64,000 nucleotides of DNA from a virus. Shown in pieces: positions 4,843 to 45,867 of the stretch (position 1 is its first letter; every line of letters begins with the position of its first letter). The stretch lies in the IMG/VR virus record IMGVR_UViG_3300045988_179062. The stretch is one strand, 5' to 3'. A program made the position numbers and the translations under genes. The notes beneath the pieces were generated by a model. That model was not told where the DNA came from. It ran no database searches and saw only the letters and a list, made by a program, of their open reading frames with translations.

Positions 4843-4860
4843 ATAACAGGAAAGGAGGCA

Positions 4861-5031
4861 ATGTCAACTATGGTGAAACGAACCATTACTCATGATGAAC
4901 TTGCTGCTCTGTGTGAGGCCCGCGATACGCTCTGCGGTTATTGCGAAGCCGATGAATGCGAGAAGTGCATCGTCACCAACCTAATTGACGATGCATACAA
5001 TGAACTGGAAGATGACGAATCATCTGATTAG
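4861..5031 (+). CDS. small Cys-rich (zinc-ribbon-like) protein, 56 aa, missed by the >=60-aa ORF track
   Basis: ATG at 4861 is preceded by GGAAAGGAGG. The translation is MSTMVKRTITHDELAALCEARDTLCGYCEADECEKCIVTNLIDDAYNELEDDESSD. It stops 15 nt before nrdD. Confidence 0.4.
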   Translation: MSTMVKRTITHDELAALCEARDTLCGYCEADECEKCIVTNLIDDAYNELEDDESSD

Positions 5032-5046
5032 AAAGGAGACTGGAAC

Positions 5047-7299
5047 ATGAACGTTATCAAACGCAACGGAACCGAAGTTCCGTTCAACCCCCAAAACATC
5101 ATCAACGCCGTGACCAAGGCCAACAATTCCATCGACGACGTATCCAAGCGAATGTCCGCGCTGCAGATTCGCGTCATAGAGGAGCAGGTCGAGAAAAAGC
5201 TCATGACCTTGGGTCGTGCGGCACATATCGAGGAGATTCAGGACCTCGTCATTCACGCCATCATGGCGCAACAAGCGTATGAGGTCGCCCAACACTACAC
5301 CGAGTACCGTTACAAGAAGGCACTCATCCGCAAGAGCAATTCCACCGATGACGCGATTCTCGCCCTCGTCGATTACGAGAACGAGGACATGAAACAGGAG
5401 AACTCCAACAAGAACCCGCAGATTGCATCGACACAGCGCGACTACATCGCCGGCATCGTGTCCCGTGACATCACATGGCGATTGCTTCTCCCTGAGGACA
5501 TCTCGGAGGCACAGAAGCAGGGCATCCTGCACTTCCACGATGCCGATTACTTCATGCAGCACATCCAGAACTGCAGCCTCATCAATCTGGACGACATGCT
5601 GCAGAACGGCACGGTCATCACCGACACGCTGATTGAGAGGCCCCAGAGTCTGGCATCTGCCGCCAACATCGCCACGCAGATTGTGGCGCAGGTCGCATCC
5701 AACCAATACGGCGGTCAGACCTTCACCCTGTCGCATCTGGCACCGTTCGTCGACGTGTCCCGCCGAAAGATTCGCTATCGCATCGAGGACGAGCTTGCCG
5801 AATGCGGCGCCTGCCTCAACGACAAGCAGATTGCGTCCATCGTCGAGGACCAGCTGGCCTATGAGATTCGCTCTGCCGTGCAGACCATCCAGTACCAGCT
5901 CATCACGCTGATGACGACCAACGGCCAGACGCCGTTCGTGAGCATGTGCATGTACCTCGACGAGGTTCCCGCCGGACGTACACGCGATGACCTTGCCCTG
6001 CTGATTCAAGAGGTCCTCAACCAGCGCATCCTTGGCGTAAAGAACAAGGAAGGCGCTTACGTCACGCCCGCGTTCCCGAAGCTCCTCTACGTCCTCGATG
6101 AGGACAACATTCACAAGGACAGCCCGTACTACTATCTGACGGAACTTGCCGCCAAGTGCACGGCGAAGCGCATGGTTCCCGACTACATCTCGGCCAAGGT
6201 CATGCGCGAGATGAAGAATGGCGATGTCTACCCGTGCATGGGCTGCCGCTCGTTCCTGACGCCGTGGCGCGTTCCTGATGAGAAAGGCAACATCGCCAAT
6301 GCCGGCAACTACGTTCCCGGACAGCACAAGTATTACGGCCGCTTCAATCAGGGCGTTGTGACCATCAACCTGCCTGACGTCGCGCTGTCGTCACATCAGG
6401 ACATGGATGATTTCTGGCGCATCTTCGACGAACGTCTGGAACTGTGCCATAAGGCACTGCGCATCCGCCATGAACGTCTGAAAGGAACCACATCGGACAT
6501 CGCGCCGATTCTGTACCAGCATGGAGCTATCGCCCGATTCAAGCCCGGTGAGGTCATCGACCCGTTGCTCTATGACGGATACTCCACGCTGAGCCTCGGC
6601 TACGCCGGCCTCTACGAGTGCGTGAAGTACATGACCGGCCAGTCCCATACGGAAGAGAACGGCAAGACGTTCGCTCTGCAGGTCATGCAGCACCTCAACG
6701 ACAAGTGCAACGAATGGAAGGCAGCCGAGAACATCGACTACTCCCTGTACGGAACGCCTATCGAGTCGACCACGTACACGTTCGCCCGCAAGCTGCAGGA
6801 GCGCTTCGGCATCATCAAGGACGTGACCGACCACGAATACATCACCAACAGCTATCACGTGAACGTGCGCGAGGACATCGACGCGTTCGAGAAGCTGCGC
6901 TTGGAAGGTGAGTTCCAGAAGCTGTCCCCGGGCGGTGCCGTCTCTTACGTCGAGGCGCCGAACATGGAGAACAACATCCCCGCCGTGCTCAAGATTGTCC
7001 GCTGCATCTACGACAGCATCCTGTATGCGGAGATTAACATCAAGAGCGACCACTGCCAGAAGTGCGGCTACGACGGCGAGGCCAAAATCGTCGATGACGA
7101 GAACGGCAAGCATATCTGGCAATGCCCGAACTGCGGCAACACCGACCAGCGCTATCTCAACGTGGCGCGCCGCACTTGCGGCTATATCGGGACCCAGTTC
7201 TGGAACCAAGGCCGCACGGAGGAGATTCGCGACCGCGTACTCCACGTATCGCTTCCCGAGTTCGACGACGCCGACGCCGCCGGCAATCGACCGCGATAG
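5047..7299 (+). CDS. nrdD: anaerobic ribonucleoside-triphosphate reductase (class III), large subunit
   Basis: An N-terminal ATP-cone ('VIKRNGTEVPF') is present. The C-terminal zinc ribbon is 'CQKCGY...CPNCG'. The glycyl-radical motif is 'RTCGYIG'. The length is typical for NrdD. Confidence 0.9.
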   Translation: MNVIKRNGTEVPFNPQNIINAVTKANNSIDDVSKRMSALQIRVIEEQVEKKLMTLGRAAHIEEIQDLVIHAIMAQQAYEVAQHYTEYRYKKALIRKSNSTDDAILALVDYENEDMKQENSNKNPQIASTQRDYIAGIVSRDITWRLLLPEDISEAQKQGILHFHDADYFMQHIQNCSLINLDDMLQNGTVITDTLIERPQSLASAANIATQIVAQVASNQYGGQTFTLSHLAPFVDVSRRKIRYRIEDELAECGACLNDKQIASIVEDQLAYEIRSAVQTIQYQLITLMTTNGQTPFVSMCMYLDEVPAGRTRDDLALLIQEVLNQRILGVKNKEGAYVTPAFPKLLYVLDEDNIHKDSPYYYLTELAAKCTAKRMVPDYISAKVMREMKNGDVYPCMGCRSFLTPWRVPDEKGNIANAGNYVPGQHKYYGRFNQGVVTINLPDVALSSHQDMDDFWRIFDERLELCHKALRIRHERLKGTTSDIAPILYQHGAIARFKPGEVIDPLLYDGYSTLSLGYAGLYECVKYMTGQSHTEENGKTFALQVMQHLNDKCNEWKAAENIDYSLYGTPIESTTYTFARKLQERFGIIKDVTDHEYITNSYHVNVREDIDAFEKLRLEGEFQKLSPGGAVSYVEAPNMENNIPAVLKIVRCIYDSILYAEINIKSDHCQKCGYDGEAKIVDDENGKHIWQCPNCGNTDQRYLNVARRTCGYIGTQFWNQGRTEEIRDRVLHVSLPEFDDADAAGNRPR

Positions 7300-7401
7300 G
7301 CGACGGTCCGCATAGACGCAGCAAAAGGGGCGAACCATCTGACGACGGTCGCCCCTTTTGCTACTGCACCTATACCAACAACAGAAAGAAGGTATGCATC
7401 T

Positions 7402-7959
7402 ATGATAACAGATAAAATCCCGCCTGTCCATATCGGGCAAATCATCAAAGACGATGTCGCCAACGGCCCCGGCATAAGGCTGTCCGTGTTCCTGTCCGGC
7501 TGTCGCATCCACTGCAAAGGCTGCTTCCAGCCACAAACATGGAACTTCTGCTTCGGACACCCCGTCACCACTGACATGTACAACGACATCATGGACGAAC
7601 TGTCGAAACCGCAATATGACGGCATCACCGTACTCGGCGGCGAACCGTTCGAACCGGAAAATCAGCCGTTTTTGCTGAAACTGCTCCATGACCTGTATAT
7701 GCGCTATCCGCACATGTCGACATGGGTTTACAGCGGATGCACATTGGATGAGCTTCGCGACCCGTCATCGACGCATCATACGGATGACACCGATGAGATT
7801 CTCAGCCTCATTGATGTACTTGTCGCCGGTCCGTTTGAGCTTGACAAGAAAGACATCACCTTGGCTTGGTACGGGTCATCCAACCAAAAAGTCATTGACA
7901 TGACACGCACAAGGGCCGCTTCGTACCAAAAAGTATACGAATATGCACCCAAATCATAA
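7402..7959 (+). CDS. nrdG: anaerobic RNR activating protein (radical SAM)
   Basis: 'CRIHCKGC' is a CxxxCxxC radical-SAM cluster motif. The gene lies immediately downstream of nrdD. Its ~185-aa size is typical. Confidence 0.85.
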   Translation: MITDKIPPVHIGQIIKDDVANGPGIRLSVFLSGCRIHCKGCFQPQTWNFCFGHPVTTDMYNDIMDELSKPQYDGITVLGGEPFEPENQPFLLKLLHDLYMRYPHMSTWVYSGCTLDELRDPSSTHHTDDTDEILSLIDVLVAGPFELDKKDITLAWYGSSNQKVIDMTRTRAASYQKVYEYAPKS

Positions 7960-7965
7960 CGAAAC

Positions 7966-8009
7966 GGCGTTGAGCATTGACAACAGTCATACTCAGCGCC
8001 TTTTTCTTT
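7966..8009. terminator. bidirectional Rho-independent terminator between the nrdG (+) and 7993..8469 (-) genes
   Basis: The stem is GGCGTTGAG / CTCAGCGCC, followed by TTTTTCTTT. Confidence 0.6.
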
Positions 8010-8469
8010 CACAAAAGCCGTATATGCGACGACCGCACTTCGCTACCAGCACATCGCACTGACCGGCACGACATGTCTCGCACGACAAAACCGTGACATT
8101 ATCATCAGACACATCATCGCAATGCACAGAAGACGTGCAATGATGCTTCCCCTCACGGTCAGGTGCGACACAATCTATGGACCCGTCCATGACCTTGATA
8201 AACAACATGCCACGTCCGATATAACACGCCTTGAATATCAGCGACAAAACAATGAGGCCGACCATGACTGACAAAAGCCACAAATCGCGCTCGATACCGC
8301 CCATAGCCGTGCCGGCGACCATGAAAGCACAAAACCAAATGCCTACGTCCAAAAGACCATTGACTATCGTACGGTCGTGCTTCCTGAGAGCATACAAACG
8401 GCGACGAACACGCCGACGCTCCGCTGATGACGGCTTACGCCAACCATTCCCACCGTGAATGGTAATCAC
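7993..8469 (-). CDS. hypothetical membrane protein, Cys-rich C-terminus
   Basis: Two predicted TM helices ('GIWFCAFMVAGTAMGG', 'LLSVMVGLIVLSLIF') are present. The C-terminal cysteine cluster is 'CETCRAGQCDVLVAKCG'. Confidence 0.45.
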   Translation of the reverse strand: MITIHGGNGWRKPSSAERRRVRRRLYALRKHDRTIVNGLLDVGIWFCAFMVAGTAMGGIERDLWLLSVMVGLIVLSLIFKACYIGRGMLFIKVMDGSIDCVAPDREGKHHCTSSVHCDDVSDDNVTVLSCETCRAGQCDVLVAKCGRRIYGFCERKRR

Positions 8470-9127: not shown

Positions 9128-9329
9128 AATTATACGCCAGAAAGGCGAAGATTTCAAGACCTTTCCTCTCATATACGAAAGGAACGGAGGTATGTTACCC
9201 CAACATGCGTATATGCCCTGATTCAGGGTTGTTACGACCGCATCGTCAGGTCGGATGGGAACCAAAACGGTGCGGTAATACTAAGACGCAGACTAAGACT
9301 AAGACTAAAATCAAGGAGGACTATTTACC

Positions 9330-10190
9330 ATGAGCAATCGAACGATTAGTACGAATCAGTTGACGCCGGGGCGAATCTTCCTCGTTCGCGGTAAGGTCGG
9401 ATTCTCCCGACTGACTTCCCGAATCGAGGGCGAGGAGCTTCAGCAGGACATCCAGCGCCGTCGCAGCAAGGGATGGCTGCCTATTGAGAAGCCCTACACG
9501 ACCATCACCATCAATCAGGCTGAGGTCATCGTGAAGGACCGCAACAACATTCAGCCCGAGGAGCAGTATGCCATCGAGTCGCTCTACATGAGCAGCTCTC
9601 AGCGCGGACAGGGAGGTTACTCCTACACCGCCAACAACAAGGGCACTCGCTCCCTTCCTTACATCGCAGTGACCCGCGCCGGTGCGCAGGGCGTTGTCGA
9701 CCAGATTCAGCCTGAGGGCGAGCTGGCCAACGGACTTGATGTCACGCTTGTTATGCGTGTCTTCAAGGGCAAGCCGAACATCGGTGTGAGCCTTGACGGT
9801 GTCATCGTCAACGAGCCGATTCGTTACTTCGATAACACTCGCGCAGGTGCCGGCCTTGACGGCTTTGGCATCACGTTCAACCCGCTGGCTCCGGGAACTC
9901 TGCCTACTGCCGCCGAGAACGACAACGGCTACAGTGCAGACCAGCCTGCTTATGCGGGTCATGAGGACCTTCCGTTCGTCTCCGAGGGAGCGGCTGCCGC
10001 TGGCAACACCGCCAACCCCGTCGCACCTATCGGTGCGATGCCCGGAGCGACCGGTACGGCGCCTGTGACTCCCGTAGCACCTGCGGGCAATGCGATGAAC
10101 GCGCCTATCAACCCGATGGGAACTGCTCCGCAGAACGGCGGGATTCGCTATGACCCCAATCAGCCCGGAAGCGAGAATCGCGGGTACTAA
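9330..10190 (+). CDS. phage/plasmid ssDNA-binding protein-like (DUF2815-like OB-fold) with an Ala/Pro/Gly-rich acidic C-terminal tail
   Basis: The N-terminal 'GRIFLVRGKVGFSRL' block resembles the DUF2815/SSB-like family. The low-complexity C-terminal tail ending in ...GSENRGY resembles SSB tails. A strong RBS is present. This is a resemblance call, not a database hit. Confidence 0.4.
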   Translation: MSNRTISTNQLTPGRIFLVRGKVGFSRLTSRIEGEELQQDIQRRRSKGWLPIEKPYTTITINQAEVIVKDRNNIQPEEQYAIESLYMSSSQRGQGGYSYTANNKGTRSLPYIAVTRAGAQGVVDQIQPEGELANGLDVTLVMRVFKGKPNIGVSLDGVIVNEPIRYFDNTRAGAGLDGFGITFNPLAPGTLPTAAENDNGYSADQPAYAGHEDLPFVSEGAAAAGNTANPVAPIGAMPGATGTAPVTPVAPAGNAMNAPINPMGTAPQNGGIRYDPNQPGSENRGY

Positions 10191-10292
10191 GACTAAGACA
10201 TAGACTTGACCCGGCAAATCATCGCCACTGCCTGCCGCACAGACCCATCCTCTGTGCGGCTTTTCTTTTATCTACAGAAAGGAGGTAACCAC

Positions 10293-10664
10293 ATGAAAAT
10301 CAAGGACTTCACCGTCGGACAGCCTGCATACCTACTCGAAGGACGGCATGGCCGACTCGAAGGGACAGACCGCATCAGAAAGGTCAATGTCCTGAAGGTC
10401 GGACGCGTCTACGTAACCATCGACGACTATGGTCGACGCTTTGGCTTGCTGGGAAGTCGGGACCCATATCTCTCCGAGGTATCCCCCGTCACGATGGCGG
10501 CAAAACTATTCCTTACATACGATGACGCCGTCGATGAGATAAAGCGGGAAACCCTCATCAGGAAAATCCACAGCGCACCGTTCAAGTCCATCTGCGACTG
10601 CACACTCGCCCAGCTTGAGCAAATCGACGATATACTTTTCTCTGACAAGGAAGGCGAGCGATGA
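10293..10664 (+). CDS. hypothetical protein
   Basis: ATG at 10293 follows GAAAGGAGG. It is translationally coupled to the next gene (ATGA overlap at 10662-10667). Confidence 0.45.
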   Translation: MKIKDFTVGQPAYLLEGRHGRLEGTDRIRKVNVLKVGRVYVTIDDYGRRFGLLGSRDPYLSEVSPVTMAAKLFLTYDDAVDEIKRETLIRKIHSAPFKSICDCTLAQLEQIDDILFSDKEGER

Positions 10665-11216
10665 ATGACGACGAATGACATAGAACGCACTTTCCGGTTT
10701 TCCGGCATCTATTTTCCCGGACGCAAACGCCCCATGTCCATCCTCATCACGTTGTACCTCATCCACGACAGCAAAAATCGACCCGTATTCGCCGTACGGG
10801 CAAATGCCTATGGACTGAAGAACGCAACAGCCATGTCCATCGCATGGAACATCGCGAAACAGCATGATGGGATGGCCAAAACAGCAAAACCGCTTCGCGA
10901 TAACCCATTATTCGCTGAACTGTATCGCCTATACAATCTGTATAACCGAAACGACCTGCATGCTGGAACGCCAGCACAGGAAGAGGCGATACGGCAAGCC
11001 ATACACGATGGAAAACTGAATGACCCCACGCAGGTCGCCATCGTCTCCTATCTCAAATCGCTGCGTCTCTACATAGACGAGACCGTCCGTGACGCGGCGG
11101 GGGAACCCCACCGCTACGGACACGGGAGAGTATATGCTGAGATACCGAAATACGACCTTTATCGTATCCGGCATCTCATCGAAACCGGCAACATTCACTA
11201 CGAACAGAAAGCATAA
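10665..11216 (+). CDS. hypothetical protein
   Basis: Coding compositional bias is present and the gene is coupled to the upstream gene. Confidence 0.45.
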   Translation: MTTNDIERTFRFSGIYFPGRKRPMSILITLYLIHDSKNRPVFAVRANAYGLKNATAMSIAWNIAKQHDGMAKTAKPLRDNPLFAELYRLYNLYNRNDLHAGTPAQEEAIRQAIHDGKLNDPTQVAIVSYLKSLRLYIDETVRDAAGEPHRYGHGRVYAEIPKYDLYRIRHLIETGNIHYEQKA

Positions 11217-11233
11217 CAAGGAGGTGATAGTCC

Positions 11234-12223
11234 ATGCCGACCATAAAACAGGTCCATAGTCACTATCAGACATTTCTGTCCAATCCAACTATCCAGCGAC
11301 TCATGTCCATCCCCAAATGGACTATCTCGGACAAGGACAAGCGCCCCATCAGCATGTACAACCTGCTTTACCGCAATCAGGTACGAGGCGCACAGACCGA
11401 CATGCCCGGAGACATGCTCGAACTGCCAAAGCTCATCGAACGGTTCAGCATGCACTTTCCCGGCGAAGGCATGATATCGAACTTCGTATTCTACCTTGAT
11501 GTCATGGTCGATGACATCGTCATTCTCGACATCGAGCCGTCCTGTCCATCGACATTGAAACGAGAGTTTCTGCAACTGCCGTACCTCTATGGCGAAACCT
11601 CGCTATCCGGCAAGGGCATCCACTTGGTCTTTCCGAAGCCCAAGAACTTCGACAATTTCCCTGCCGCCGCCAAGAAGGTCGCCATGAAGGGACCCGGCAA
11701 GCACTACGAGATTCTCATGAACCATTGGGTCACGTTCACCGGACGACCGCTCGGGCATCCTGTCGGCAAGAATCCCGAAAACCAAAAGCCGTTTGAGCTT
11801 CTGTATGCAAAACTCGCCATAAAACAGAAGGAAGCGCAGACCGCAGAACTGCATCTCGACGCGCAAAGGCTCAAGGACGACATTGCCGAGATTCCTGATT
11901 CGGACTACATCATGGACATTCTGCTCCGTCCGGCCAACGATGTCCGCATCAGCGTGGAACAATACGATGGCGACATGTCCCGTTACGAGTTCGCATACTT
12001 CGGTATCAAGTATTCTCAGCTGGCAAATCTGCTGTCCAGCACGCGAATCAAAAAGAACGGGCACACTTACACAGCCGAAGACTATATTCGCCTTTTGTAT
12101 GCCATCAGCGTTCAACAGCTGCCGCATCGTGATAAGCACGACACCGTACGTCAGCACATGCCATGGTTACTCTATGAAGCAACGCAAATCGTTGGGCAGC
12201 GCGCCAGCGAAAAGAAAAAGTAA
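11234..12223 (+). CDS. archaeo-eukaryotic primase-like (bifunctional Prim-Pol domain) protein
   Basis: AEP motif I is 'IVILDIEPS' (an acidic D-x-E dyad). Motif II is 'SLSGKGIHLVF' (sGxGxHhhh). RBS AAGGAGG is upstream. Confidence 0.55.
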   Translation: MPTIKQVHSHYQTFLSNPTIQRLMSIPKWTISDKDKRPISMYNLLYRNQVRGAQTDMPGDMLELPKLIERFSMHFPGEGMISNFVFYLDVMVDDIVILDIEPSCPSTLKREFLQLPYLYGETSLSGKGIHLVFPKPKNFDNFPAAAKKVAMKGPGKHYEILMNHWVTFTGRPLGHPVGKNPENQKPFELLYAKLAIKQKEAQTAELHLDAQRLKDDIAEIPDSDYIMDILLRPANDVRISVEQYDGDMSRYEFAYFGIKYSQLANLLSSTRIKKNGHTYTAEDYIRLLYAISVQQLPHRDKHDTVRQHMPWLLYEATQIVGQRASEKKK

Positions 12224-16951: not shown

Positions 16952-18184
16952 ATGAAATTTGACAACGTACTTATGACCTGCGTCCGCAAGGACCTCGAAA
17001 AGAATCTTATTCCCATGTTGCTCGGTGAGCCGGGTATCGGTAAGTCCTCGTGGCTGATGGCACTTGCCGACATGATGCACACGAAGTGCTTCGTTCTCGC
17101 CTGCAACCAGCTTGCCGACAAGGCTGACTTGACCGGTGCCAGACTGGTTCCCGTTACCGATGAGGACGGCAACGTCAAATCCTACAAGCAGGAGTTCTAT
17201 CCTCACGCCGTCATCCATGACGCCATCGAGTATGCCAACGAGCATCCGCATGAGACTCCCATCCTGTTCATGGACGAGTTGAACCGTACGACGCCTGACG
17301 TTACGTCTGAGGCGCTGTCCATCCCTACCCTTCGTGCCATCGGTTCCGTTCATCTTCCGAACAACCTTCGCGTGGTCATCGCCGGCAACGACAAGGGTAA
17401 CGTGACCTCGCTGGACGAGGCTTCCATCTCCCGATTCGTGCTGTACCGCACCCAGCCAGACGTCGAAACGTTCATCAGCGTAAACCCTGAGCTGAATCCG
17501 TTCGTCCGCAACGTGCTGAACGCGCATCCCGAGTGCATCTTCTGCAAGACCATCGGCGACATCACCGCGACCAAGAAGGACGACGATGATGACAGCGACG
17601 ACGATATGTTCATCGAGGACATCATCGACGACGGCGAGACCATGCTGCAGATTACCACTCCGCGTACCATCTCTGCCGTCAGCAATTGGCTGAACGCCTT
17701 CGACAATCAGGAGCTGATTCAGATGCTCACTGATACGCATACGGTGGACGGTGCCGAGATATCCATGCTTCAGGAGGCCATCGAGGGTCACATCGGCGCT
17801 ACGATGTTCTCGACCTACCTCATGGAGGAGATTGCCCGCAACATCATGAACACCAACAACCAGAGCGCAACGCTTCAGGTCGGTAAGCCTGCGGTTTACG
17901 ACACGATGAAGTCCTGCGGTGACGTCAACGCTTTGAATGAGCTGATTGACGACATGTCCGACAATGACCGCTCCGGCTGCTTGCTGTACGCTTTGTACGA
18001 GGCGCAGGACAACACGCCTTACATCAAGGCTCTGTCCGCCAACATCAAGACGTTCACGTCCGGCGACATGAAGACGCTGATGAAGCTCTACGGTGCCGAC
18101 AAGCTGGACAGCCAGAACGTGCAGGCGTTCCTTGCAACCAACTCCCCGATTTCGCAGAAGCTGAGCGTTATCTTGGAGTCTTAA
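16952..18184 (+). CDS. AAA+ ATPase, AAA_5/MoxR-CobS-like
   Basis: The Walker A is 'GEPGIGKSS' and the Walker B is 'ILFMDELNR'. The sensor/arginine region is 'VVIAGNDKG...ISRF'. An acidic Asp-rich insert lies at the C-terminus. Confidence 0.75.
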   Translation: MKFDNVLMTCVRKDLEKNLIPMLLGEPGIGKSSWLMALADMMHTKCFVLACNQLADKADLTGARLVPVTDEDGNVKSYKQEFYPHAVIHDAIEYANEHPHETPILFMDELNRTTPDVTSEALSIPTLRAIGSVHLPNNLRVVIAGNDKGNVTSLDEASISRFVLYRTQPDVETFISVNPELNPFVRNVLNAHPECIFCKTIGDITATKKDDDDDSDDDMFIEDIIDDGETMLQITTPRTISAVSNWLNAFDNQELIQMLTDTHTVDGAEISMLQEAIEGHIGATMFSTYLMEEIARNIMNTNNQSATLQVGKPAVYDTMKSCGDVNALNELIDDMSDNDRSGCLLYALYEAQDNTPYIKALSANIKTFTSGDMKTLMKLYGADKLDSQNVQAFLATNSPISQKLSVILES

Positions 18185-18206
18185 TCAGAAAGGAGATGAC
18201 AGCATA

Positions 18207-19862
18207 ATGCAAATCACAAACCAGAAACCCGTCGAGCTGTCCCCAGTGTATGACGCTGTCATCACGGGGCAGTTCGAACCGGTTGATTACCTCAAAGAGA
18301 CGGTTATCAAACCGCTCATGACGCCACTGTCTCCATCGGCTCCCGTGCAGTTCTCTACCAACGGGAGCCAGCTGGATGAAGACAACCTGACGCAGTACGT
18401 GCTGAACTGTCTGACTGATACGTTCGACGCTGCCGCTGAAGCCGTCGCCAAGGATATGTTCCACAAGACCCTTGTCTACTTCGACAAGACCAGCGACCTG
18501 TCCATTCAGGACTTGTTCGCCATCCAGTCCGCGGTGAAGGAGCAGCTCCCTGCTCCGACGGCGCAGGTCGTCTATACGCCGGCCACCGACGTCATCCCGG
18601 CATGCCGTGAGTTCCTCGCCGGTATCTGCACGTATGACAAGCTGTTCGCGTCGCTAGACTTCTACGCGCGCCCGCAGGTGCTCGGCTTCTACTTCGCCAA
18701 CTCGACTGAGTTCGACAACTTCAAGACGTGGCTGAACGGTGAGCTGCAGGTACTCGGAAGCGCCCTTCCGCAGAACACCAATAAGCTGTTCGCTGATTTT
18801 CAGGCGCTGAACCTCAACGGTCTGACCGAGTCGCTCATCCTTCGCAACGATGACAACGAGAACAACGACCCTTGCAGCTTCGCACGTACGCTCGTCGCTC
18901 TGATGATGAAGTACACCAAGGCGACATCGCCTGCGCTGTATGGCGTCCTTCCGTTCCAGCTCGGTGAGCTGTATTGCCCGAAGGCTGTCGTGTTCGTCAA
19001 CATCGAGCGCCACAGCCGTGCAACGGCAAAGCAGGTCGCTGATGAGTGGCAGATTATCAACCAGTCTCAGCAGATGAAAATCAAGGTCGTATCCACCAAC
19101 AAGCTGAACAAGCTGACTGGTGCGGTTCGTGCCATGAAGAAAATCTCATCTGGCGCCGTTGCCGCCAACATGGCGCAGAACAACCCCGGCGTTGCCCGTG
19201 CCGCTCGCGCGAAATTCCGCAAGACGCAACCGACACAGACCGACTTGGTTCGAATCCTTCGCCGTGTCGTCAAGAAGATGGCTACTGTCGCAAAATCCGA
19301 GAACAGCTACAAGTCCGTCAAGATGTCCTTTGCCCGTCCGAACCGACGTGACCCGGACAACTTCAACTTGATGGGTAAGCTGGTTTCCACGAAGTACAAG
19401 CCCGACATCCATATCTATCTGGATACGTCAGGTTCTATCTCCGAGCGTAACTATCAGGATGCCATCAAGGCGCTCATCATCATGGCTCGCAAGATGAACG
19501 TGAACCTGTACTTCAACAGCTTCAGCCATTGTCTCAGCCAGTGCTCCCACCTTCGCACGAAGGACCGCTCGCTCAAAGAGGTCTACGCCGCCTTCCAGAA
19601 GATTCCGAAGGTTGACGGCGGCACCGACTACGAGCAGATTTGGCATTACATCAATGCCAGCAAGAAGCGTCGTCGCGAACTGTCCATCATCATGACGGAC
19701 TTCGAGTGGACCGCACCGAACCGCTATGTCAAGCATCCGAAGAACCTGTTCTACATCCCTATCTCGCATACGGATTGGCAGGGACTGACATACTGGGCCG
19801 ACAAGTTCGTCAAGAGCATGGCTCACATCGACCCCAACTGCAGAGCAAGACTGCTCTTTTAA
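18207..19862 (+). CDS. von Willebrand factor A (VWA) domain protein, CobT-like partner of the AAA_5 ATPase
   Basis: The C-terminal MIDAS motif is 'DTSGSIS', with 'GGTDY' and 'IIMTDFE' nearby. It lies immediately downstream of and co-directional with the AAA_5 gene (23-nt gap). Confidence 0.7.
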   Translation: MQITNQKPVELSPVYDAVITGQFEPVDYLKETVIKPLMTPLSPSAPVQFSTNGSQLDEDNLTQYVLNCLTDTFDAAAEAVAKDMFHKTLVYFDKTSDLSIQDLFAIQSAVKEQLPAPTAQVVYTPATDVIPACREFLAGICTYDKLFASLDFYARPQVLGFYFANSTEFDNFKTWLNGELQVLGSALPQNTNKLFADFQALNLNGLTESLILRNDDNENNDPCSFARTLVALMMKYTKATSPALYGVLPFQLGELYCPKAVVFVNIERHSRATAKQVADEWQIINQSQQMKIKVVSTNKLNKLTGAVRAMKKISSGAVAANMAQNNPGVARAARAKFRKTQPTQTDLVRILRRVVKKMATVAKSENSYKSVKMSFARPNRRDPDNFNLMGKLVSTKYKPDIHIYLDTSGSISERNYQDAIKALIIMARKMNVNLYFNSFSHCLSQCSHLRTKDRSLKEVYAAFQKIPKVDGGTDYEQIWHYINASKKRRRELSIIMTDFEWTAPNRYVKHPKNLFYIPISHTDWQGLTYWADKFVKSMAHIDPNCRARLLF

Positions 19863-19892
19863 GCGCTTTGGGAAGTCTCTCGCCACATAGGC

Positions 19893-19946
19893 AAGCCCCT
19901 CGTCCTATGGGCGAGGGGCGAGGGGCTTTCCGAAGCTATTCTTTTC
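19893..19946 (+). terminator. GC-rich hairpin with a T-rich tail
   Basis: The stem is GCCCCTCG...CGAGGGGC (the 3' arm is duplicated), followed by TTTCC...TTCTTTTC. Confidence 0.45.
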
Positions 19947-20036
19947 AGCGGATAACGAATGGTCAACCCACGCCTTACGGCAGAAAAATCCCACGACCAT
20001 CGCCGCTCAATGAGCTATCAGAAAGGAGAAATACAC

Positions 20037-21872
20037 ATGGGAATAAGCAATTTCACCGGTAATGGCAACAACACCGGAAACGGCAACAATGCCGGTGGTA
20101 ACGGCGGTGGTTTCCCGTTTTCGGCACCTCAGATGCCCAACCAGACCAATGATGATGCGACTGAGTATCTCATCAATTACAATGAACGTTTCAAGACCGC
20201 AGGGAACGCCATGTTCCGCGACGCCATCGTCAACCAGACCATGGCCGTACTTATCGGCAAGAACAAGCCGAACGCCCTGCTGGTCGGTTCCGCTGGCGTA
20301 GGCAAGACGAAAATCGTCGAGGACATCGCCTACCGCATCGAAAATAAGGACCCGTCCGTGCCGGACAAGCTGGCAGGCTATACCGTGTGGGAGCTTCCGC
20401 TCTCCAACATCGTGTCCGGTTCCAGCTACGTCGGTCAGCTTGAGGAAAAGCTCAAGACCGTCATCGAATTTGCCTGCGACAAGGCAAACAAGGTCATCCT
20501 GTTCATCGACGAGATTCATCAGCTTGTCGGCGAGTCCAGCGTCTACGGCAAGATTGCCCAGATTCTGAAGCCCGCACTCGCCCGTGGCGACATCAAGGTT
20601 ATTGGCGCCACCACGTTGCAGGAGTCCTCGCAACTGATGGACGACCCCGCTCTGAATCGTCGATTCTCTCGACTTATCGTCGATGAACTGACACAGGAGC
20701 AGACCGTTGAGGTGTTGCGCTGCGCACTGCCGGGCTACTTCGCCCACTATGGCAACTGCATCAGCGTAAACCAAGACATGTTGCCGACCATCGTCGCCAT
20801 CGCCGACCAATACGCGTCTGCAGGCAACCATCGCCCCGACACGGCTCTGACGCTGTTCGACCGCGCCTGCGGCGACGCCGTCATTGCCCGTAAGCAGAAG
20901 GAGCTTGCGCTCGCAAACGACCCGACCTTGCTGGCGGCACTCAAGCAGAACCCGCTCATCCCTATCACGGAGAAGCAGATTCGCACCACAGCGATGCATC
21001 TCATGACCGGAAATGCCGTGCATGAGAGCTTGGACGTCGACTCCCTGCGTGCACGTTTCGCCCGCATCAAGGGTCAGGACGACATCCTCGCGACCATCGT
21101 AGACCGTCTGAAGCGCAATGACTCCAACCTGTTCCCTCGCAAGCGTCCTCTGACCTTCCTGTTCGCTGGCGCATCCGGCGTCGGCAAGACCGAGGTCACG
21201 AAGATTATCGCCGAGGAGATGACAGGCGTGAAGCCCATCACGCTGAACATGGCGGAATACCACTCCCCTGCATCCATCAACCGCATCATCGGCGCACCTG
21301 CCGGTTACGTCGGTTCCGAATCCCACGCCGAACTTCCGTTTGACACGCTGGAGTCCAACCCCTATCAGGTCATCCTGCTCGATGAGTTCGAGAAGGCAGA
21401 CCGCAGCGTACAGCGCCTGTTCATGAACGCATTCGATGAGGGCAACATCAAGACCTCAAAGGGTCGCACCGTTGACTTCTCAAAGGCTATCATCATCGCC
21501 ACGACCAATGCGTCCCACACTACAGGCGCAACCCATGCGCTTGGCTTCGTGAGCGTCGGCGACAGCAAGGCGAACGCGCATCGCAACACCGTCGACACGC
21601 TTGCCAACTGGTTCGACACGGAGCTGCTCAACCGCTTCACAATGATTCTCACGTTCCACGAACTGAGCCGTGACGTATACCGCGACATCGTCGCTGACAT
21701 CTACAAGCGCGAAATCGCTCGTATCAAGCACGAATATCGCAGCGTGAAGATGGCAGATGAACTTGACGACGCTACGCTTGACACTATCGTGGATGAGACG
21801 TATGTACCGAAGTTCGGTGCGCGCCCTGCCGGCCGTGCCGTACAGGACTACATCGAATCCAACGCCATTTAA
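20037..21872 (+). CDS. ClpA/ClpB-like double-AAA+ ATPase lacking the N-domain and M-domain
   Basis: D1 is 'LVGSAGVGKTKIVEDIAYRI ... ILFIDEIHQLVG ... GATT'. D2 is 'FLFAGASGVGKTEV ... VILLDEFEKA ... NRFTMILTFHELS'. The N-terminus is a Gly/Asn-rich low-complexity region. The start is taken at 20037 (RBS GAAAGGAG); the track ORF begins at 19959. Confidence 0.75.
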   Translation: MGISNFTGNGNNTGNGNNAGGNGGGFPFSAPQMPNQTNDDATEYLINYNERFKTAGNAMFRDAIVNQTMAVLIGKNKPNALLVGSAGVGKTKIVEDIAYRIENKDPSVPDKLAGYTVWELPLSNIVSGSSYVGQLEEKLKTVIEFACDKANKVILFIDEIHQLVGESSVYGKIAQILKPALARGDIKVIGATTLQESSQLMDDPALNRRFSRLIVDELTQEQTVEVLRCALPGYFAHYGNCISVNQDMLPTIVAIADQYASAGNHRPDTALTLFDRACGDAVIARKQKELALANDPTLLAALKQNPLIPITEKQIRTTAMHLMTGNAVHESLDVDSLRARFARIKGQDDILATIVDRLKRNDSNLFPRKRPLTFLFAGASGVGKTEVTKIIAEEMTGVKPITLNMAEYHSPASINRIIGAPAGYVGSESHAELPFDTLESNPYQVILLDEFEKADRSVQRLFMNAFDEGNIKTSKGRTVDFSKAIIIATTNASHTTGATHALGFVSVGDSKANAHRNTVDTLANWFDTELLNRFTMILTFHELSRDVYRDIVADIYKREIARIKHEYRSVKMADELDDATLDTIVDETYVPKFGARPAGRAVQDYIESNAI

Positions 21873-21949: not shown

Positions 21950-24859
21950 ATGCCAGTTATTCTCAATGACTTGACAAAGAATGTACCTATCAAGGTATAT
22001 TCGCCTAAGTTCTTCGACTCCAAACTCACCGGCACGGGTAAGAAAATCGGACTTCTCAACGAGGCCCGCAACCCTATCCACATAGACAAGTCGCAGAACA
22101 CCTCGAACGAGAATATCAACGTCTACAAACACCATTACTCCAATGGTCAGGCTGACGTGACGTTCGTTCCGTTCTATATCATCACACCCGATGCTTGGTC
22201 TTACATGACCCAGTTCAATCGTCCCGACCTGCAGGACCTTACCTGCTTTGCTAAAAAATCCAACACCGGCGGTCAGACGATGAAGATGTACTGCTCGATG
22301 GACGTTCACAGCATCGTGCTGGAAGAAATCGTCCCTCAGTATAAGAACGCCCCAACCAAGAAGAATCTGACGGCATGCTATCAGCTCTTCTTCTGGTGCA
22401 TCTCCGATGATGCAGACCCGTCTTGCGAGCAGGCATACGACGTTGACCGCATGGTCTACAATGCCCGCTATGGCGCAAACAACAACGCCTTCGCTCAGGT
22501 CATCACCTGCAACCCGATGCGCATGATTCAGAATGCCATCGGCACGCTAACCACGGAGGGTTGGACCGTCGACTCTCAGGCAATTCAGAACTTCATGCAG
22601 GACTACAGCCTCTACGATGGCATCTGCCGTCGCAGCGAGCAGTGGCAGACCACGATTCACGAGCTTCTTGACACGTTCTTCAAGAGTGTCGCCAACAGGC
22701 TCAGCAATGGAGTCAACAAGAACAATGCCCTCAACGAGGTAAGCCGTGTGCTTCACCGCATCGAGGACTACAACGTTCCTTTGGACCTGTACCGCAACAT
22801 CTACCACAGCCTGTCTGCGAACTTCCATGCAGACGACGCCACGGTGCTCTGCAAGCAGAATCTGAACCTGTTGCTGTCCGATACGCTGAACAACCTCAAT
22901 CAGAACAAGGCTCAGCTGACTTGCCTGCCGACCCCGGCAAAGCCCGTCCAGCTCGACTCGTACTTCTCCCGCGAACAGCGCGATGCAATCTCGACTACCG
23001 AGCCGCTCGTCCTTGTTCAGGCAGGTGCGGGTACCGGTAAGTCCACAGTCGTTCTCGCGCGAATCCAGTACATGGTCGATTGCGGAATCCCTCCGCAGGA
23101 CATCACCGTGCTGAGCTTCACCAATGCTGCCGCCGACCACATCACGGACAAGAACCCTTACGTTCACTCCATGACCATCGCCAGCATGATTCACACGATT
23201 TATACGGCCAACTTCAAGGGTCACGAGCTATCCAGCATTGATACCATCATCAACTCGCTCGACATCTACTTCCCGAACGACGACTTCGCCTATGACTTCC
23301 GCCGTAAGTTGCAGAGCGTTCAGAAGAACGACCGTGACAGCTTCACTCGCATGAACAACTTCATCGAGCGCCACTACGACGAGGTCATGAAGGTGCTTGA
23401 CACCATCGGCCAGACGTCGCTTGAACTGGAAATCATCATCTGCTACCAGCAGATTGAGAACCTTGTGGAACCACCGGAGGTTCAGAGCCGCTACCTCATC
23501 ATCGACGAGGTGCAGGACAACTCCATCTTCGAGTTCGTCTATACGCTCAAGTACGTCGACAAGCACAAGGAATCCCTGTTCATGGTGGGCGACTGCTCCC
23601 AGACGCTGTACGAGTTCCGTGCATCCAACCCGAAGGCACTGAATGTGCTGGAAGGCTCCGGTGTGTTCGCTACGTATCAGCTGCAGACCAACTACCGCTC
23701 GAATCAGGAGATTCTGGACTTCGCCAACGTGACGCTGTCCAACATCGAGGCGAACCAGTACGCTCACATCCAGCTTCAGGCCAACAGCTTGGCGCCGGTA
23801 ACCGAGCAGTCGTTCCAAGAGAAGGTCCGCCTGCATTACGAGCAGTTGAGCCGTATCAGCGAGTTCAACGATGCGTTGCACGGCATCTTCGCAACCAAGC
23901 TCTACAAGTACATCGAAGAGAAACTTGTCGCTGGAGAGCAGATTGCGTTCCTCGCATACACGCGCTTCCACGTGAACCTTATGCGAGAAATCGTCGAGAA
24001 GATGTATCCCAACGCGACGACGGCGAACCTCGTGCCCGACAAGGTCTACAACGCGACTGTCTTCTCTGAGTTCATCAAGCGCTACTGGGGAGACGTCAAG
24101 TTCGTACCGAGTCGTTCCATCATGGTTATCATCTCGCAGGAGATTATCCAGCGTCTGGACTCCCTTGTCTACGACAAGAACAAGTCACTCAACCATGTGA
24201 AGAAGCTGATTTCCGACTGGGTCAACGAGAATCGTGCCACGGTCGGCGTATGGCAGAACGAGCTTGCCGCCGGTCGCATGTCGCAGGACGCATTCCTGTC
24301 CAACGTGCGAAACAACATGTTGCAGTTCGAGATTAAGCACAACGCCATCCGCCAGTCGCTGGTCAGTGCCCGTAACCAGCAGAACAAGCAGAACCAGAAC
24401 GTCAACACGGCGAACTTCCTGTTCTCAACGATTCACAGCGCCAAGGGCTTGGAGTTCGAAAACACGGTCGTCCTCTATCAGGCGAAGAACGACATGGACG
24501 AGGAAAAGAAACGTATGTACTACGTCGCCTTCACTCGCGCCATGAAGTCCGAATACATCGTGGCTTACGACACGGTGGTAACGCCTAAGATTCAGGCTGA
24601 CTACGAAGCCATTCTGGAAAATCTGCACGACAAGGCACAGGGCAGCCAGCTTCAGCAGGCTGACCGTGACGTCACGGTCGTTACCACCGGCGAAGAGTCC
24701 ACCGAGGACATCCTCGAAGCCATCGAAGAGACGGCAGATGCCGTCGCCGATGACAAAGCTGACAATCTCCCGATTGCCGAAATCAAGACTGGTGCCCTCG
24801 CCATCAAGGCACCCGCCGAAATCGTCAAGGTCGACACGACTGACGACGACAACAACTAA
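21950..24859 (+). CDS. UvrD/Rep-like SF1 helicase with a ~330-aa N-terminal domain of unknown function
   Basis: Motif I is 'LVQAGAGTGKSTV'. 'LSFTNAAADHI' and 'YLIIDEVQD' (motif II) follow. C-terminal 'FSTIHSAKGLEFENTVVLY' is motif VI. The N-terminal third has no recognisable motif. The tail is acidic. Confidence 0.75.
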   Translation: MPVILNDLTKNVPIKVYSPKFFDSKLTGTGKKIGLLNEARNPIHIDKSQNTSNENINVYKHHYSNGQADVTFVPFYIITPDAWSYMTQFNRPDLQDLTCFAKKSNTGGQTMKMYCSMDVHSIVLEEIVPQYKNAPTKKNLTACYQLFFWCISDDADPSCEQAYDVDRMVYNARYGANNNAFAQVITCNPMRMIQNAIGTLTTEGWTVDSQAIQNFMQDYSLYDGICRRSEQWQTTIHELLDTFFKSVANRLSNGVNKNNALNEVSRVLHRIEDYNVPLDLYRNIYHSLSANFHADDATVLCKQNLNLLLSDTLNNLNQNKAQLTCLPTPAKPVQLDSYFSREQRDAISTTEPLVLVQAGAGTGKSTVVLARIQYMVDCGIPPQDITVLSFTNAAADHITDKNPYVHSMTIASMIHTIYTANFKGHELSSIDTIINSLDIYFPNDDFAYDFRRKLQSVQKNDRDSFTRMNNFIERHYDEVMKVLDTIGQTSLELEIIICYQQIENLVEPPEVQSRYLIIDEVQDNSIFEFVYTLKYVDKHKESLFMVGDCSQTLYEFRASNPKALNVLEGSGVFATYQLQTNYRSNQEILDFANVTLSNIEANQYAHIQLQANSLAPVTEQSFQEKVRLHYEQLSRISEFNDALHGIFATKLYKYIEEKLVAGEQIAFLAYTRFHVNLMREIVEKMYPNATTANLVPDKVYNATVFSEFIKRYWGDVKFVPSRSIMVIISQEIIQRLDSLVYDKNKSLNHVKKLISDWVNENRATVGVWQNELAAGRMSQDAFLSNVRNNMLQFEIKHNAIRQSLVSARNQQNKQNQNVNTANFLFSTIHSAKGLEFENTVVLYQAKNDMDEEKKRMYYVAFTRAMKSEYIVAYDTVVTPKIQADYEAILENLHDKAQGSQLQQADRDVTVVTTGEESTEDILEAIEETADAVADDKADNLPIAEIKTGALAIKAPAEIVKVDTTDDDNN

Positions 24860-24865
24860 CCATCA

Positions 24866-24897
24866 GGGCGGGCGGCAACAGACCGCCCGCCTTTATC
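24866..24897 (+). terminator. Rho-independent terminator
   Basis: The stem is GGGCGGGCGG / CCGCCCGCC, followed by TTTATCTAT. Confidence 0.55.
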
Positions 24898-24920
24898 TAT
24901 ATCAAAGGAGACCACCGACA

Positions 24921-25499
24921 ATGAACGATAAAATCCTAAAAGGAGACATCTTTTATATACGCAGCTCTGACACTGTTCCCCCGATAGGATGTGAGATATG
25001 GTCGGACCGTCCTGCGTTGGTGGTGAGCAATAACACGACAAATCAGACTGCAGGCGCAATCGAAATCGTGTATCTGTCCACCTCGATGCACAAGCGTCCC
25101 TCACCTCTCCACGTCCGTGTTCAATCCGGCAACCGCAATGCCATTGCCATGTGCGGACAAATTCACAGCGTCGACAAGAGCCGTCTTGTACAAAAGCTGG
25201 GTTCCATCACACCGAAGGAGCTTGAGACCATCGACAAAGCCCTATGCTTCTCGCTGGGAATCCAGCACGAGAACTATCGCTCCCTCTTCAAGAAGTGGGA
25301 GAACTACATCCGCGAGTACCATATCCCCGTCATCGAGGAAATCGAATCCATGGCGGCCGCCACGATGGATGACGCATTCTCTGTCCTCAGGCGCCAGATT
25401 TCCGTGCTGACGAAGGAACGGGATGGTTATAAAGCTCTCGCAGAGGCCCGAGAGGAACAGCTGAATGCAATTCAGTTGCAAAATATTCATACCGAATAA
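24921..25499 (+). CDS. MazF/PemK/EndoA-family endoribonuclease toxin fused to a ~75-aa C-terminal coiled-coil extension
   Basis: Residues 1-115 align along their full length with EndoA/Kid. 'GDIFYIRS...RPALVVSNNTTNQ' matches 'GDVYFADL...RPVLVIQNDIGNR'. 'MCGQIHSVDKSRLVQKLGSITPKELETIDKALCFSLGI' matches '..[35 protein letters not shown]'. RBS AAAGGAG is upstream. No MazE-like small gene lies on either side. Confidence 0.7.
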   Translation: MNDKILKGDIFYIRSSDTVPPIGCEIWSDRPALVVSNNTTNQTAGAIEIVYLSTSMHKRPSPLHVRVQSGNRNAIAMCGQIHSVDKSRLVQKLGSITPKELETIDKALCFSLGIQHENYRSLFKKWENYIREYHIPVIEEIESMAAATMDDAFSVLRRQISVLTKERDGYKALAEAREEQLNAIQLQNIHTE

Positions 25500-25513: not shown

Positions 25514-26491
25514 ATGTCTATCAATCTTGGAACCCCAATCAAAACCAACTTGAAGCCGGAACTGTACGCTATCACCCCAGAGATTGCAGCACAGTTGCTC
25601 CGCAATACCGAAGACAATCCACGTACCGCCACAAAGGGCGTCTACTATCGCTACGCTGAAGACATGCGCCTTGGACTTTGGCAGCCCGGTGGTGTCGATA
25701 TGATTGCTATCGACCACAACGGTTGCCTCATCAACGGTCAAAATCGTATGCAAGCAGTCGTTGCCAGCGGAACCACTCAGGAATTTTGGGTGATTCAGAA
25801 CGTTGAGCCAGACTATTGCGATAACACCGACAGCGGCAAGAAACGTCGTCTGAAAGACTACATCAACATCCGCACAAAGCAGAAGAACTGCGGTGTTACC
25901 GACATCTTCGAAACGCTTCTTCCTCGTATGTACACGTTCATCCACGGAAGCGACAGTCTCGGAAATGCCATGAACGCACGCGGACATCGTAACGTAAGCA
26001 TATCTCGTTCACAGGCACTGTCTGTGCTCGAAGAGAGCTTCGACGAAATGTTCTACTATGCAACCCGCGCAAAGGGTATCTGCAAGGCACACTTCGAGAA
26101 CAAGAACCGAGGATATGTCGCCACTGCGCTCATGTTCATTAACAAGCTCGGGCAATCTGACCGACTGGACGAGTTCTGCCATCAGATGGATGCGGTAACC
26201 ACGGAACATCCCGCTATCATTGAGACATGGGCGCGTCTGCGCACCGTGCAGGAGCCAGCAAGGGCGATGAACATCGACGTACAGAAATACGTCATCTTCA
26301 CCATTTTGGCTGCATACGAGTTGTTCCTACAGGATGACACCCGCATGTCACCTCGACAGATTACCAGCAGCATGAACAACCTTGGCGATGTTGCCTACAA
26401 GTACGACCGTCTGTTTATGATGAAGTACAACGACGGCGCAGTAAACCCCAACTCTTTCGCGTTGAAGATGCAGGCGCAACTCAGAAGCTAA
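25514..26491 (+). CDS. ParB/sulfiredoxin-like nuclease-domain protein (tentative)
   Basis: 'IAIDHNGCLINGQNRMQAVV' resembles the ParB/Srx 'DGxHR / DGQQR' box. The remainder is unrecognised. Confidence 0.35.
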   Translation: MSINLGTPIKTNLKPELYAITPEIAAQLLRNTEDNPRTATKGVYYRYAEDMRLGLWQPGGVDMIAIDHNGCLINGQNRMQAVVASGTTQEFWVIQNVEPDYCDNTDSGKKRRLKDYINIRTKQKNCGVTDIFETLLPRMYTFIHGSDSLGNAMNARGHRNVSISRSQALSVLEESFDEMFYYATRAKGICKAHFENKNRGYVATALMFINKLGQSDRLDEFCHQMDAVTTEHPAIIETWARLRTVQEPARAMNIDVQKYVIFTILAAYELFLQDDTRMSPRQITSSMNNLGDVAYKYDRLFMMKYNDGAVNPNSFALKMQAQLRS

Positions 26492-26510: not shown

Positions 26511-26545
26511 CAGGCGCCCTCTTCACAAAGAGGGCGCCATAATTA
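26511..26545 (+). terminator. Rho-independent terminator
   Basis: An 11-bp stem, GGCGCCCTCTT / AAGAGGGCGCC, is followed by an AT-rich tract. Confidence 0.55.
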
Positions 26546-36274: not shown

Positions 36275-36500
36275 TGCGATATTCCTCCTTTTCTTCGTTG
36301 ATACGAATTTGTGGTCCACGTTCGGACCGCACGTAAAATGATTATGCCTATCGTATGAATTATACCATAATTGTGCACATATATCAACGAAAAATGACCT
36401 GTCACCAGGTCATTTCCTGTGCTACAATCATATGCAATCGCGGTGCGCAGCCTTCGGGTCGCACCTGAGGCGGCTCGATGCGTCGGGCCGCCTTTTTTTG

Positions 36501-45856: not shown

Positions 45857-45867
45857 AATCGCCTCCT

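Follow-up and report, generated by a model that had tools for sequence, protein, structure and literature searches.

A MazF-family protein with a conserved bipartite C-terminal tail and no adjacent antitoxin gene in the replication module of an uncultivated phage lineage

Introduction

MazF is among the best-studied bacterial toxins and is usually treated as one half of a two-gene module. The MazF proteins of Bacillus subtilis (EndoA/MazF, YdcE), Staphylococcus aureus, and Bacillus cereus are about 116 amino acids (aa) long and are encoded directly after mazE in chromosomal type II toxin-antitoxin (TA) operons. MazF forms obligate dimers and binds RNA where the two subunits meet. An Arg serves as general acid/base and a Thr or Ser as transition-state stabilizer. 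Mutation of Arg25 or Thr48 abolishes the RNase activity of the B. subtilis and B. cereus enzymes, and Mycobacterium tuberculosis MazF7 naturally carries a Ser in place of the catalytic Thr (PMC7354611). Here we describe a MazF-family gene on the plus strand, at positions 24921-25499 of a 64,000-nucleotide (nt) stretch of viral DNA (IMG/VR record IMGVR_UViG_3300045988_179062, called the window over its whole length). Unlike chromosomal MazF, the encoded protein, which we call the MazF-tail protein, carries a 77-aa helical tail, is encoded without mazE, and belongs to a phage replication module.

The locus is one of a large uncharacterized group in phages, whose MazF proteins retain the active site, share a conserved C-terminal module, and are encoded without an antitoxin gene. 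The evidence presented below establishes the architecture and the distribution of the protein, of which the conserved bipartite tail and the status as a core gene are the noteworthy points.

Results

A MazF fold with a conserved active site

The MazF-tail gene is an intact open reading frame (ORF) of 192 codons plus a TAA stop codon. It starts with ATG, and a Shine-Dalgarno sequence, AAGGAG, was read from the sequence 10 nt 5' of this codon (24905-24910, plus strand). Residues 1 to 115 (24921-25265, plus strand) form a MazF/PemK endoribonuclease domain according to Pfam, PDB alignments, and Foldseek. The Pfam family PemK_toxin (PF02452) matched residues 7 to 111 over profile positions 2 to 108 of 109 (expectation value [E], 6.3e-20), with a score of 71.9 bits, which is above the curated threshold of 23.1. 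Residues 3 to 115 aligned in HMMER with the solved MazF/EndoA chains of S. aureus, B. subtilis, Bacillus anthracis, and B. cereus (E, 4e-10 to 3e-9). We modeled the protein as a monomer with AlphaFold2, using 22 homologues as input, and obtained predicted local distance difference test (pLDDT) values of 74 to 91 for the MazF core. Foldseek superposed this core on B. subtilis EndoA/MazF (1NE8 and 4MDX) and S. aureus MazF (4MZM) over about 115 residues, with target-normalized template modeling (TM) scores of 0.79 to 0.84 and E of about 1e-10. Sequence identity to these proteins is 24 to 27% over the same length. The AlphaFold2 core and the Foldseek matches therefore place the domain in the SH3-like barrel fold of MazF, Kid, and CcdB. 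An earlier reading of this DNA from its letters alone (the sequence-only reading) had assigned residues 1 to 115 to the MazF/EndoA-like proteins, and the Pfam, PDB, and Foldseek results bear it out.

In the HMMER alignment with B. subtilis and B. cereus MazF (7BXY for the latter), R30 (codon 25008-25010) corresponds to the catalytic Arg25 and S53 (codon 25077-25079) to the catalytic Thr48. When about 159 representative domains of the clade were aligned, 151 had Arg at position 30 and 150 had Thr or Ser at position 53; H64, C78, Q80, and R88 are conserved to a similar degree. The MazF-tail protein also keeps the GxE...RP, PxH, and CxQ positions of EndoA-type proteins. About 95% of the representatives keep the catalytic Arg, the Thr/Ser, and the EndoA-like PxH and CxQ positions. 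A degenerate active site, which the sequence-only reading had named as a finding that would speak against it, was thus not what we saw. These results show a MazF fold, and the clade as a whole conserves the catalytic Arg and Ser/Thr.

A conserved helical tail in three parts

The tail comprises residues 116 to 192 (77 aa) and is predicted to be helical, with AlphaFold2 helices at residues 119 to 132 and 140 to 190. The pLDDT was 81 to 88 at residues 151 to 180 and 54 to 59 at residues 111 to 150, which include the first helix and the linker. The full length of the tail is conserved in 33 of 37 close homologues, and the alignments show that it is built from an aromatic amphipathic helix set on the domain, a variable, mostly acidic linker, and a zipper-like heptad helix.

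The first part, motif A (residues 117 to 135, ENYRSLFKKWENYIREYHI; 25269-25325, plus strand), is an amphipathic aromatic helix that follows the core directly and has the consensus F.KWE.YI..Y in alignments of close and distant tails. The close family shows no variation at F123, K125, W126, Y129, and I130, F.KWE.Y is found in about half of the distant representatives, and the corresponding AlphaFold2 helix (residues 119 to 132) has a pLDDT of about 59. The linker (residues 136 to 151, PVIEEIESMAAATMDD; 25326-25373, plus strand) is acidic, with a net charge of -5, and varies between tails in both length and sequence. Over 107 representative tails, the acidic bias is modest, with a mean net charge of -2 and negative values in 57%. 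We considered an acidic RNA-mimic tail, for which this family-wide bias is only modest.

The last part, motif B (residues 152 to 188, with KERDGYKALAEA at its center; 25374-25484, plus strand), is a leucine-zipper-like heptad helix with the consensus L..L..ERDxYK.LYE.LL. In the tail alignment, R167 and D168 do not vary, and conservation is at least 90% at E166 and Y170. The a/d positions, assigned from the sequence, are F153, L156, I160, L163, R167, Y170, A174, R177, L181, and I184, mostly hydrophobic residues or Arg. A profile of the tail matched the leucine zippers of MafB and MafA (E, 7.5e-4; aligned stretch, LKQEVSRLARERDAYK) and also the EB1 coiled coil. By its heptads, its helix prediction, and its resemblance to zippers, motif B fits the leucine-zipper/coiled-coil class and would be dimeric. 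The helical C-terminal extension of about 75 aa with a coiled-coil part that the sequence-only reading had proposed is thus supported by the AlphaFold2 helices and by the MafB, MafA, and EB1 matches.

An internal start at M144, which would yield a free zipper peptide, was ruled out, as this residue is L or I in relatives. Searching 5.8 billion proteins with the tail profile returned two fragments only and no free-standing tail family, a weak negative given that known full-length homologues were also missed. One of the two fragments, P0187, is a remnant of the 3' end of a MazF-tail gene. It is a 64-aa chimeric ORF produced by a 117-nt remnant, 85% identical to the MazF-tail 3' end plus intergenic spacer, at positions 3088-3204 of an otherwise unrelated contig (L014, Logan SRR17335710), near an IS605 Y1 transposase/TnpB pair. 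This remnant looks like a recombination scar.

No antitoxin gene beside the MazF-tail gene

Upstream of the MazF-tail gene lies a gene for a 969-aa UvrD-like superfamily 1 (SF1) helicase (21950-24859, plus strand), identified by the Pfam domains UvrD-helicase, AAA_19, and UvrD_C, by PHROG 1967, and by synteny. The 61-nt gap between the two genes contains only a GC-rich hairpin (24865-24893, plus strand) and the ribosome-binding site, which leaves no room for a protein antitoxin. The hairpin is terminator-like for the helicase gene and has a folding energy of -23.5 kcal/mol (z, -4.3), a stability that none of 200 shuffled sequences reached. The end of the helicase gene at 24859 and the lack of an upstream antitoxin ORF agree with what had been noted from the sequence alone. 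A 277-aa ORF (24666-25499) was rejected as a hidden antitoxin, being the same frame extended back to a GTG within the helicase gene.

Between positions 23500 and 27000, the sole tandem repeat is a trivial 9-nt run of 2.3 copies inside the helicase gene, and no ToxI-type repeat RNA was found. No Rfam family was matched near the MazF-tail gene. A type III (ToxIN-like) RNA antitoxin was ruled out on these two grounds. When the 64-kb window was searched by tblastn with four MazE/PemI sequences, only short chance matches were obtained (E, >0.02), and with these four queries no SpoVT-AbrB-like, MazE, or PemI sequence was found in the window. PADLOC gave no match. The adjacent antitoxin gene of a type II MazEF/PemIK module is missing on both sides, with nothing upstream and no conserved downstream ORF in the related loci described below. 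We conclude that there is no dedicated antitoxin gene beside the MazF-tail gene.

Spread of the tailed architecture among phage MazF proteins

Residues 1 to 174 matched positions 5 to 173 of 188 in PHROG 1936 ("MazF-like growth inhibitor"; E, 4.9e-24). Since this match reaches residue 174, the catalogued phage family already takes in an extension. The MazF-tail gene is therefore a new member of PHROG 1936, which is experimentally unstudied: our literature search found no study of tailed phage MazF proteins and no experimental characterization of PHROG 1936 members, including those of the Faecalibacterium phages FP_Lagaffe and FP_Brigit. In these two phages, gp50 (169 aa) and gp83 (172 aa), respectively, likewise consist of a MazF core and a C-terminal helical tail. 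ERDLYRNLY is clear in FP_Lagaffe gp50 and degenerate in FP_Brigit gp83. Both MazF genes lie in the early/replication region, with no annotated antitoxin. They differ from the MazF-tail gene in encoding proteins that are 28 to 29% identical to it, with shorter tails and without motif A (F.KWE.YI), and their phages, of 48 to 62 kb, fall outside the large ClpB/UvrD-type lineage described below.

We searched 1.84 billion cluster representatives exhaustively with HMMER and obtained 3,218 matches at E of ≤1e-3. We counted tails and motifs in the best 150 of these, among which 136 are single-domain cluster representatives. At least 40 residues follow the core in 107 of the 136, a proportion that is skewed upward because the query has a tail. 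Motif B (ERDxYK.LY) is present in 37 of the 136, FP_Lagaffe-like tails among them, and in none of the 11 representatives that are tandem MazF-MazF or four-domain proteins. In two tandem proteins (P0040 and P0074), motif A is kept after each of the two domains. The tandem proteins of the clade (P0040, P0074, and P0105) are about 250 to 290 aa long, the four-domain protein P0134 has 471 aa, and P0127 has 10 MazF-like stretches in 4,240 aa.

In BFVD, Foldseek found many viral PemK-like models of 170 to 266 aa that aligned over the full length with a root mean square deviation (rmsd) of 10 to 18 Å, which suggests that the tails are not fixed on the core. In smaller phages, the tailed protein occurs in other gene contexts, without the UvrD-like gene. 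This survey does not support a view of the fusion as unusual, since PHROG 1936, the BFVD entries, FP_Lagaffe, and FP_Brigit all share the layout.

A core gene of a phage replication module

The window encodes an NrdD-type reductase, several helicases, MoxR-like, ClpB-like, and MgsA-like ATPases, a dUTPase, and a RecD-like protein. It is phage DNA and part of a large uncultivated phage. No tRNA genes were found in the window. Megablast revealed no near relatives among 50,697 sequenced phages. The best ClpB-like protein match was <37% identical, and no copy turned up when 185,579 reference bacterial genomes were scanned with the two sequence motifs of the lineage. The 37 metagenome homologues are nearly all 185 to 232 aa long, with 95 to 100% query coverage, and lie on contigs of up to 169 kb.

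We examined 11 related loci from this phage lineage (L004 to L013 and L015). All 11 carry genes for a 551- to 553-aa protein, a ClpB-like ATPase, and a UvrD-like helicase, followed by the MazF-tail gene after a gap of 57 to 119 nt. Identity of the MazF protein to the query was 67% for L004 to L006, 54% for L011 and L012, 48% for L007 to L009, 45% for L010, 43% by alignment (39% by BLASTP) for L013, and 29% for L015. The gene order of the block is MoxR-like ATPase, 551-aa protein, ClpB-like ATPase, UvrD-like helicase, MazF-tail, variable genes, and MgsA-like ATPase. Downstream of MazF-tail, a 325-aa gene is found here and in L004 to L006, and unrelated small ORFs are found in L010, L011/L012, L013, and L015. 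In L007 to L009, the MgsA gene follows directly and overlaps the MazF stop codon. BLASTP among all downstream neighbors linked solely the two 325-aa proteins, at 27% identity.

The shared upstream block and the variable downstream region show that the MazF-tail gene is a vertically inherited core gene of the early/replication module, without a conserved partner gene, in an uncultivated lineage with contigs of 117 to 169 kb. In this lineage, it is as stably inherited as the surrounding replication genes. The idea of an orphan toxin carried as abortive-infection cargo on a mobile element, also raised by the sequence-only reading, does not fit a syntenic core gene of a replication module in phages with contigs of 117 to 169 kb.

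The downstream 325-aa gene

The 325-aa gene (25514-26491, plus strand; PHROG 5931, function unknown) starts 14 nt after the MazF-tail gene and is its variable neighbor. It is followed by a terminator-like hairpin (26513-26538, plus strand) with an 11-bp stem that includes 8 GC pairs; a spurious, sub-threshold Rfam match to "Histone3" falls at the same place. The hairpins at 24865-24893 and 26513-26538 bracket the two genes and suggest that this phage transcribes them as one unit.

The distance and size of this gene had been given correctly in the sequence-only reading, and its label as ParB/Srx-like was not confirmed. The protein had no Pfam match even at E of 10 and no match to PDB sequences, singly or as a profile, and none of its 11 homologues has a Pfam domain. 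Its AlphaFold2 model is poor (pLDDT, 46.8), with moderate confidence just in the first ~100 residues, and Foldseek with this low-confidence model found no fold match. The N-terminal 109 aa matched the ParB-like phrog_620 weakly (E, 0.083), and the homologue in L004 has DGHHR where the 325-aa protein has NGQNR. The ParB/Srx-like assignment is thus a weak lead rather than a finding.

Between the window phage and its sister phage L004 (10639-11616), the 325-aa proteins are 27% identical and the MazF proteins 67%. The next-closest database homologues of the 325-aa protein are 44 to 47% identical. In this variable slot, the gene either evolves fast or has been replaced. Synteny rules it out as a conserved partner, as it is absent from 8 of the 11 related loci (L007 to L013 and L015). 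The earlier proposal that the ParB-like neighbor might be a non-canonical partner of the toxin is not supported in view of this absence and of the low identity in the sister phage.

Other features of the phage and its relatives

Only 1 CCWGG site (36405-36409) occurs in positions 1-64000, compared with about 88 expected from shuffles, and GCWGC, AAGCTT, ATCGAT, GAGCTC, CTCGAG, and CATATG are likewise strongly depleted in positions 1-29000. As the depleted words are palindromes, they point to restriction avoidance and are uninformative on the specificity of MazF. The phage looks to show broad restriction-site avoidance. In the 169-kb sister phages (L004 to L006), type I restriction-modification genes (Methylase_S and N6_Mtase; 17637-20579) lie about 7 kb downstream of the MazF gene.

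Several relatives carry insertions. The UvrD-like helicase gene of L015 is interrupted by a LAGLIDADG gene (994-4915), NrdD of L011 is interrupted by an HNH/NUMOD gene (9159-12222), and in L013 a reverse-transcriptase gene, probably of a group II intron, lies just 3' of the MazF gene (6901-8166). These insertions are selfish elements in core genes. In the window itself, ORFs of 2,366 aa (45751-54929, plus strand) and 1,368 aa (59691-63797, minus strand) have no PHROG match and face equally long ORFs on the opposite strand, and the strand assignment of long ORFs in the GC-rich half of the window is uncertain.

Discussion

The reading that we favor, and consider on balance probable by a modest measure, is that the gene encodes a predicted MazF-family endoribonuclease deployed by the phage without an adjacent antitoxin, with the zipper clamping the MazF dimer. 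The enzyme would be made during infection and would cut host and/or phage RNA at a short motif, leading to host mRNA/rRNA shut-off or to transcript processing. An antitoxin would be unnecessary because the phage, if lytic, kills its host anyway. A solitary MazF has been reported in Myxococcus, which is a precedent for MazF without an antitoxin neighbor (PMC2701414). The zipper would most likely pair two C-termini in parallel and so stabilize the dimer or join dimers. Given the obligate MazF dimer and its RNA site between the subunits, a C-terminal parallel zipper would clamp or cross-link dimers. The tandem MazF-MazF proteins, which have motif A per domain and no zipper, are in line with such a clamp: their pattern suggests, without doing more than that, that motif A is a per-domain appendage and motif B a dimerization device made needless by covalent duplication.

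Several observations weigh against this reading. The EndoA motif UACAU is not depleted in the coding strand of positions 1-29,000 (29 observed versus 28.9 expected), so that there is no sign of self-avoidance. The contrast between tandem and single-domain proteins in motif B, 0 of 11 versus 37 of 136, is not significant (Fisher's test, P = 0.066). Judged from sequence, the similarity of the tail to MafB and EB1 is a resemblance of structural class and not homology. Finally, the AlphaFold2 model is a monomer predicted from a shallow alignment and says nothing on how the tail relates to the dimer or the RNA groove.

The best-surviving alternative, which we nevertheless regard as rather unlikely, is a single-chain toxin-antitoxin. 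Helix A and the acidic linker would fold onto the groove of the MazF dimer like the MazE C terminus and hold the RNase inactive until something such as proteolysis, a competing phage, or a host factor released it, for superinfection exclusion, abortive infection, or a timed switch. Aromatic residues of the MazE C terminus contact the β3-β4 loop of MazF (PMC7354611), and helix A offers the conserved residues Y119, F123, W126, Y129, and Y133. It is nevertheless not acidic, with a net charge of +1, and the tail profile has no similarity to MazE or PemI. The linker does carry a net charge of -5, and of the 37 representative tails with motif B, 70% have a net negative segment before the zipper, but the bias over the tails as a whole is modest (mean, -2; 57% negative). 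The occurrence of motif A after every MazF domain of the tandem proteins would fit an action per domain, but the motif is missing in about half of the tailed relatives. A separate antitoxin was found neither in the upstream gap nor among repeats, Rfam families, tblastn matches in the window, or downstream ORFs, which counts in favor of this alternative. Against docking, AlphaFold2 sets residues 111 to 150 beside the core with a pLDDT of only 54 to 59, the rmsd of 10 to 18 Å to other tailed viral PemK-like models suggests free tails, and no free-standing tail-like family or split version of the gene was found in what was a weak search.

A further reading takes the bipartite tail as a self-contained switch, in which helix A and the acidic linker would occlude the RNA groove of a zipper-clamped dimer and a specific trigger would free the RNase. 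We hold this to be unlikely. If true, the trigger could be the co-conserved ClpB-like machine, through unfolding or proteolysis, or a protein of a competing phage, and a widespread clade of phage MazF proteins would represent fused toxin-antitoxin switches of a new class, with which phages time host shut-off or exclude their rivals.

A conventional toxin with a partner in trans is a distinctly doubtful proposition. The partner could be the 325-aa protein here, with small non-homologous ORFs taking that part in relatives, or it could be an antitoxin encoded elsewhere by the phage or by the host; MazF-mx of Myxococcus is controlled by an unlinked regulator. The two genes are 14 nt apart between their bracketing hairpins, and the 325-aa family evolves fast (27% versus 67% for MazF), as interaction and defense genes often do. 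MazF-mx is itself a reported solitary MazF (PMC2701414). Against such a partner, the 325-aa gene is absent from L007 to L013 and L015, BLASTP links none of the ORFs that take its slot to one another, the last part of the MazF gene in L007 to L009 is overlapped by MgsA, and the window is without MazE, PemI, or SpoVT-AbrB-like sequence. Least likely is a non-RNase role in the replication module, for example, binding to nucleic acid (RNA or DNA) or contact with a topoisomerase or helicase in the manner of CcdB, with the zipper as an adaptor to the UvrD-like or ClpB-like machines: the UvrD-like helicase is an invariant neighbor across the lineage and the MazF/CcdB fold includes the gyrase poison CcdB, but the sequence is MazF-type and not CcdB-type, the tailed protein of smaller phages sits without a UvrD-like gene, and the conservation of the catalytic Arg, Thr/Ser, PxH, and CxQ in about 95% of representatives argues for selection for catalysis.

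Should these phage MazF proteins prove to be active RNases, they would give Firmicutes phages, many of them from the human gut, a widespread means of taking over the host or processing RNA, and new sequence-specific RNases could be drawn from them. Should the tail prove to regulate the enzyme, toxin control would have a new solution.

Other phages encode MazF proteins without a tail, namely, gp166 of Lactobacillus phage Bacchae (112 aa) and the 118-aa proteins of Agathobacter phage NatCom_13861 and Enterocloster phage CB473P1. Like the MazF-tail gene, none of the three has a recognizable MazE neighbor, which indicates that an orphan MazF is normal in these phages. In Bacchae, gp167 (L002, 2247-2435), 65 nt upstream of gp166, is a 62-aa, very acidic, zipper-like ORF with weak bZIP Pfam matches. 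It could be an unrecognized antitoxin for tail-less phage MazF proteins; as a homologue of the MazF tail, it was ruled out (hhalign probability, 0.2%).

For the predicted function, the closest analogy is RegB of phage T4, a phage-encoded, sequence-specific RNase without an antitoxin, which offers a precedent for the use of a toxin-fold RNase by a phage. The fold of RegB is related to the TA toxin family RelE/YoeB (PMC2701414), and RegB is reported to cut within GGAG and to inactivate early phage mRNAs (PMC1702504). The likeness is one of function only, since RegB has a RelE-like and not a MazF-like fold and no coiled-coil tail. In architecture, the MazF-tail protein resembles CapRel(SJ46) and EzeT, which also join a toxin domain and an extra segment in one polypeptide without a separate antitoxin gene. 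CapRel(SJ46) and EzeT are fused toxin-antitoxin proteins whose extra domain has been shown to neutralize the toxin in cis. They belong to other toxin families and to bacterial or prophage defense loci, whereas the MazF-tail gene is part of a phage replication module.

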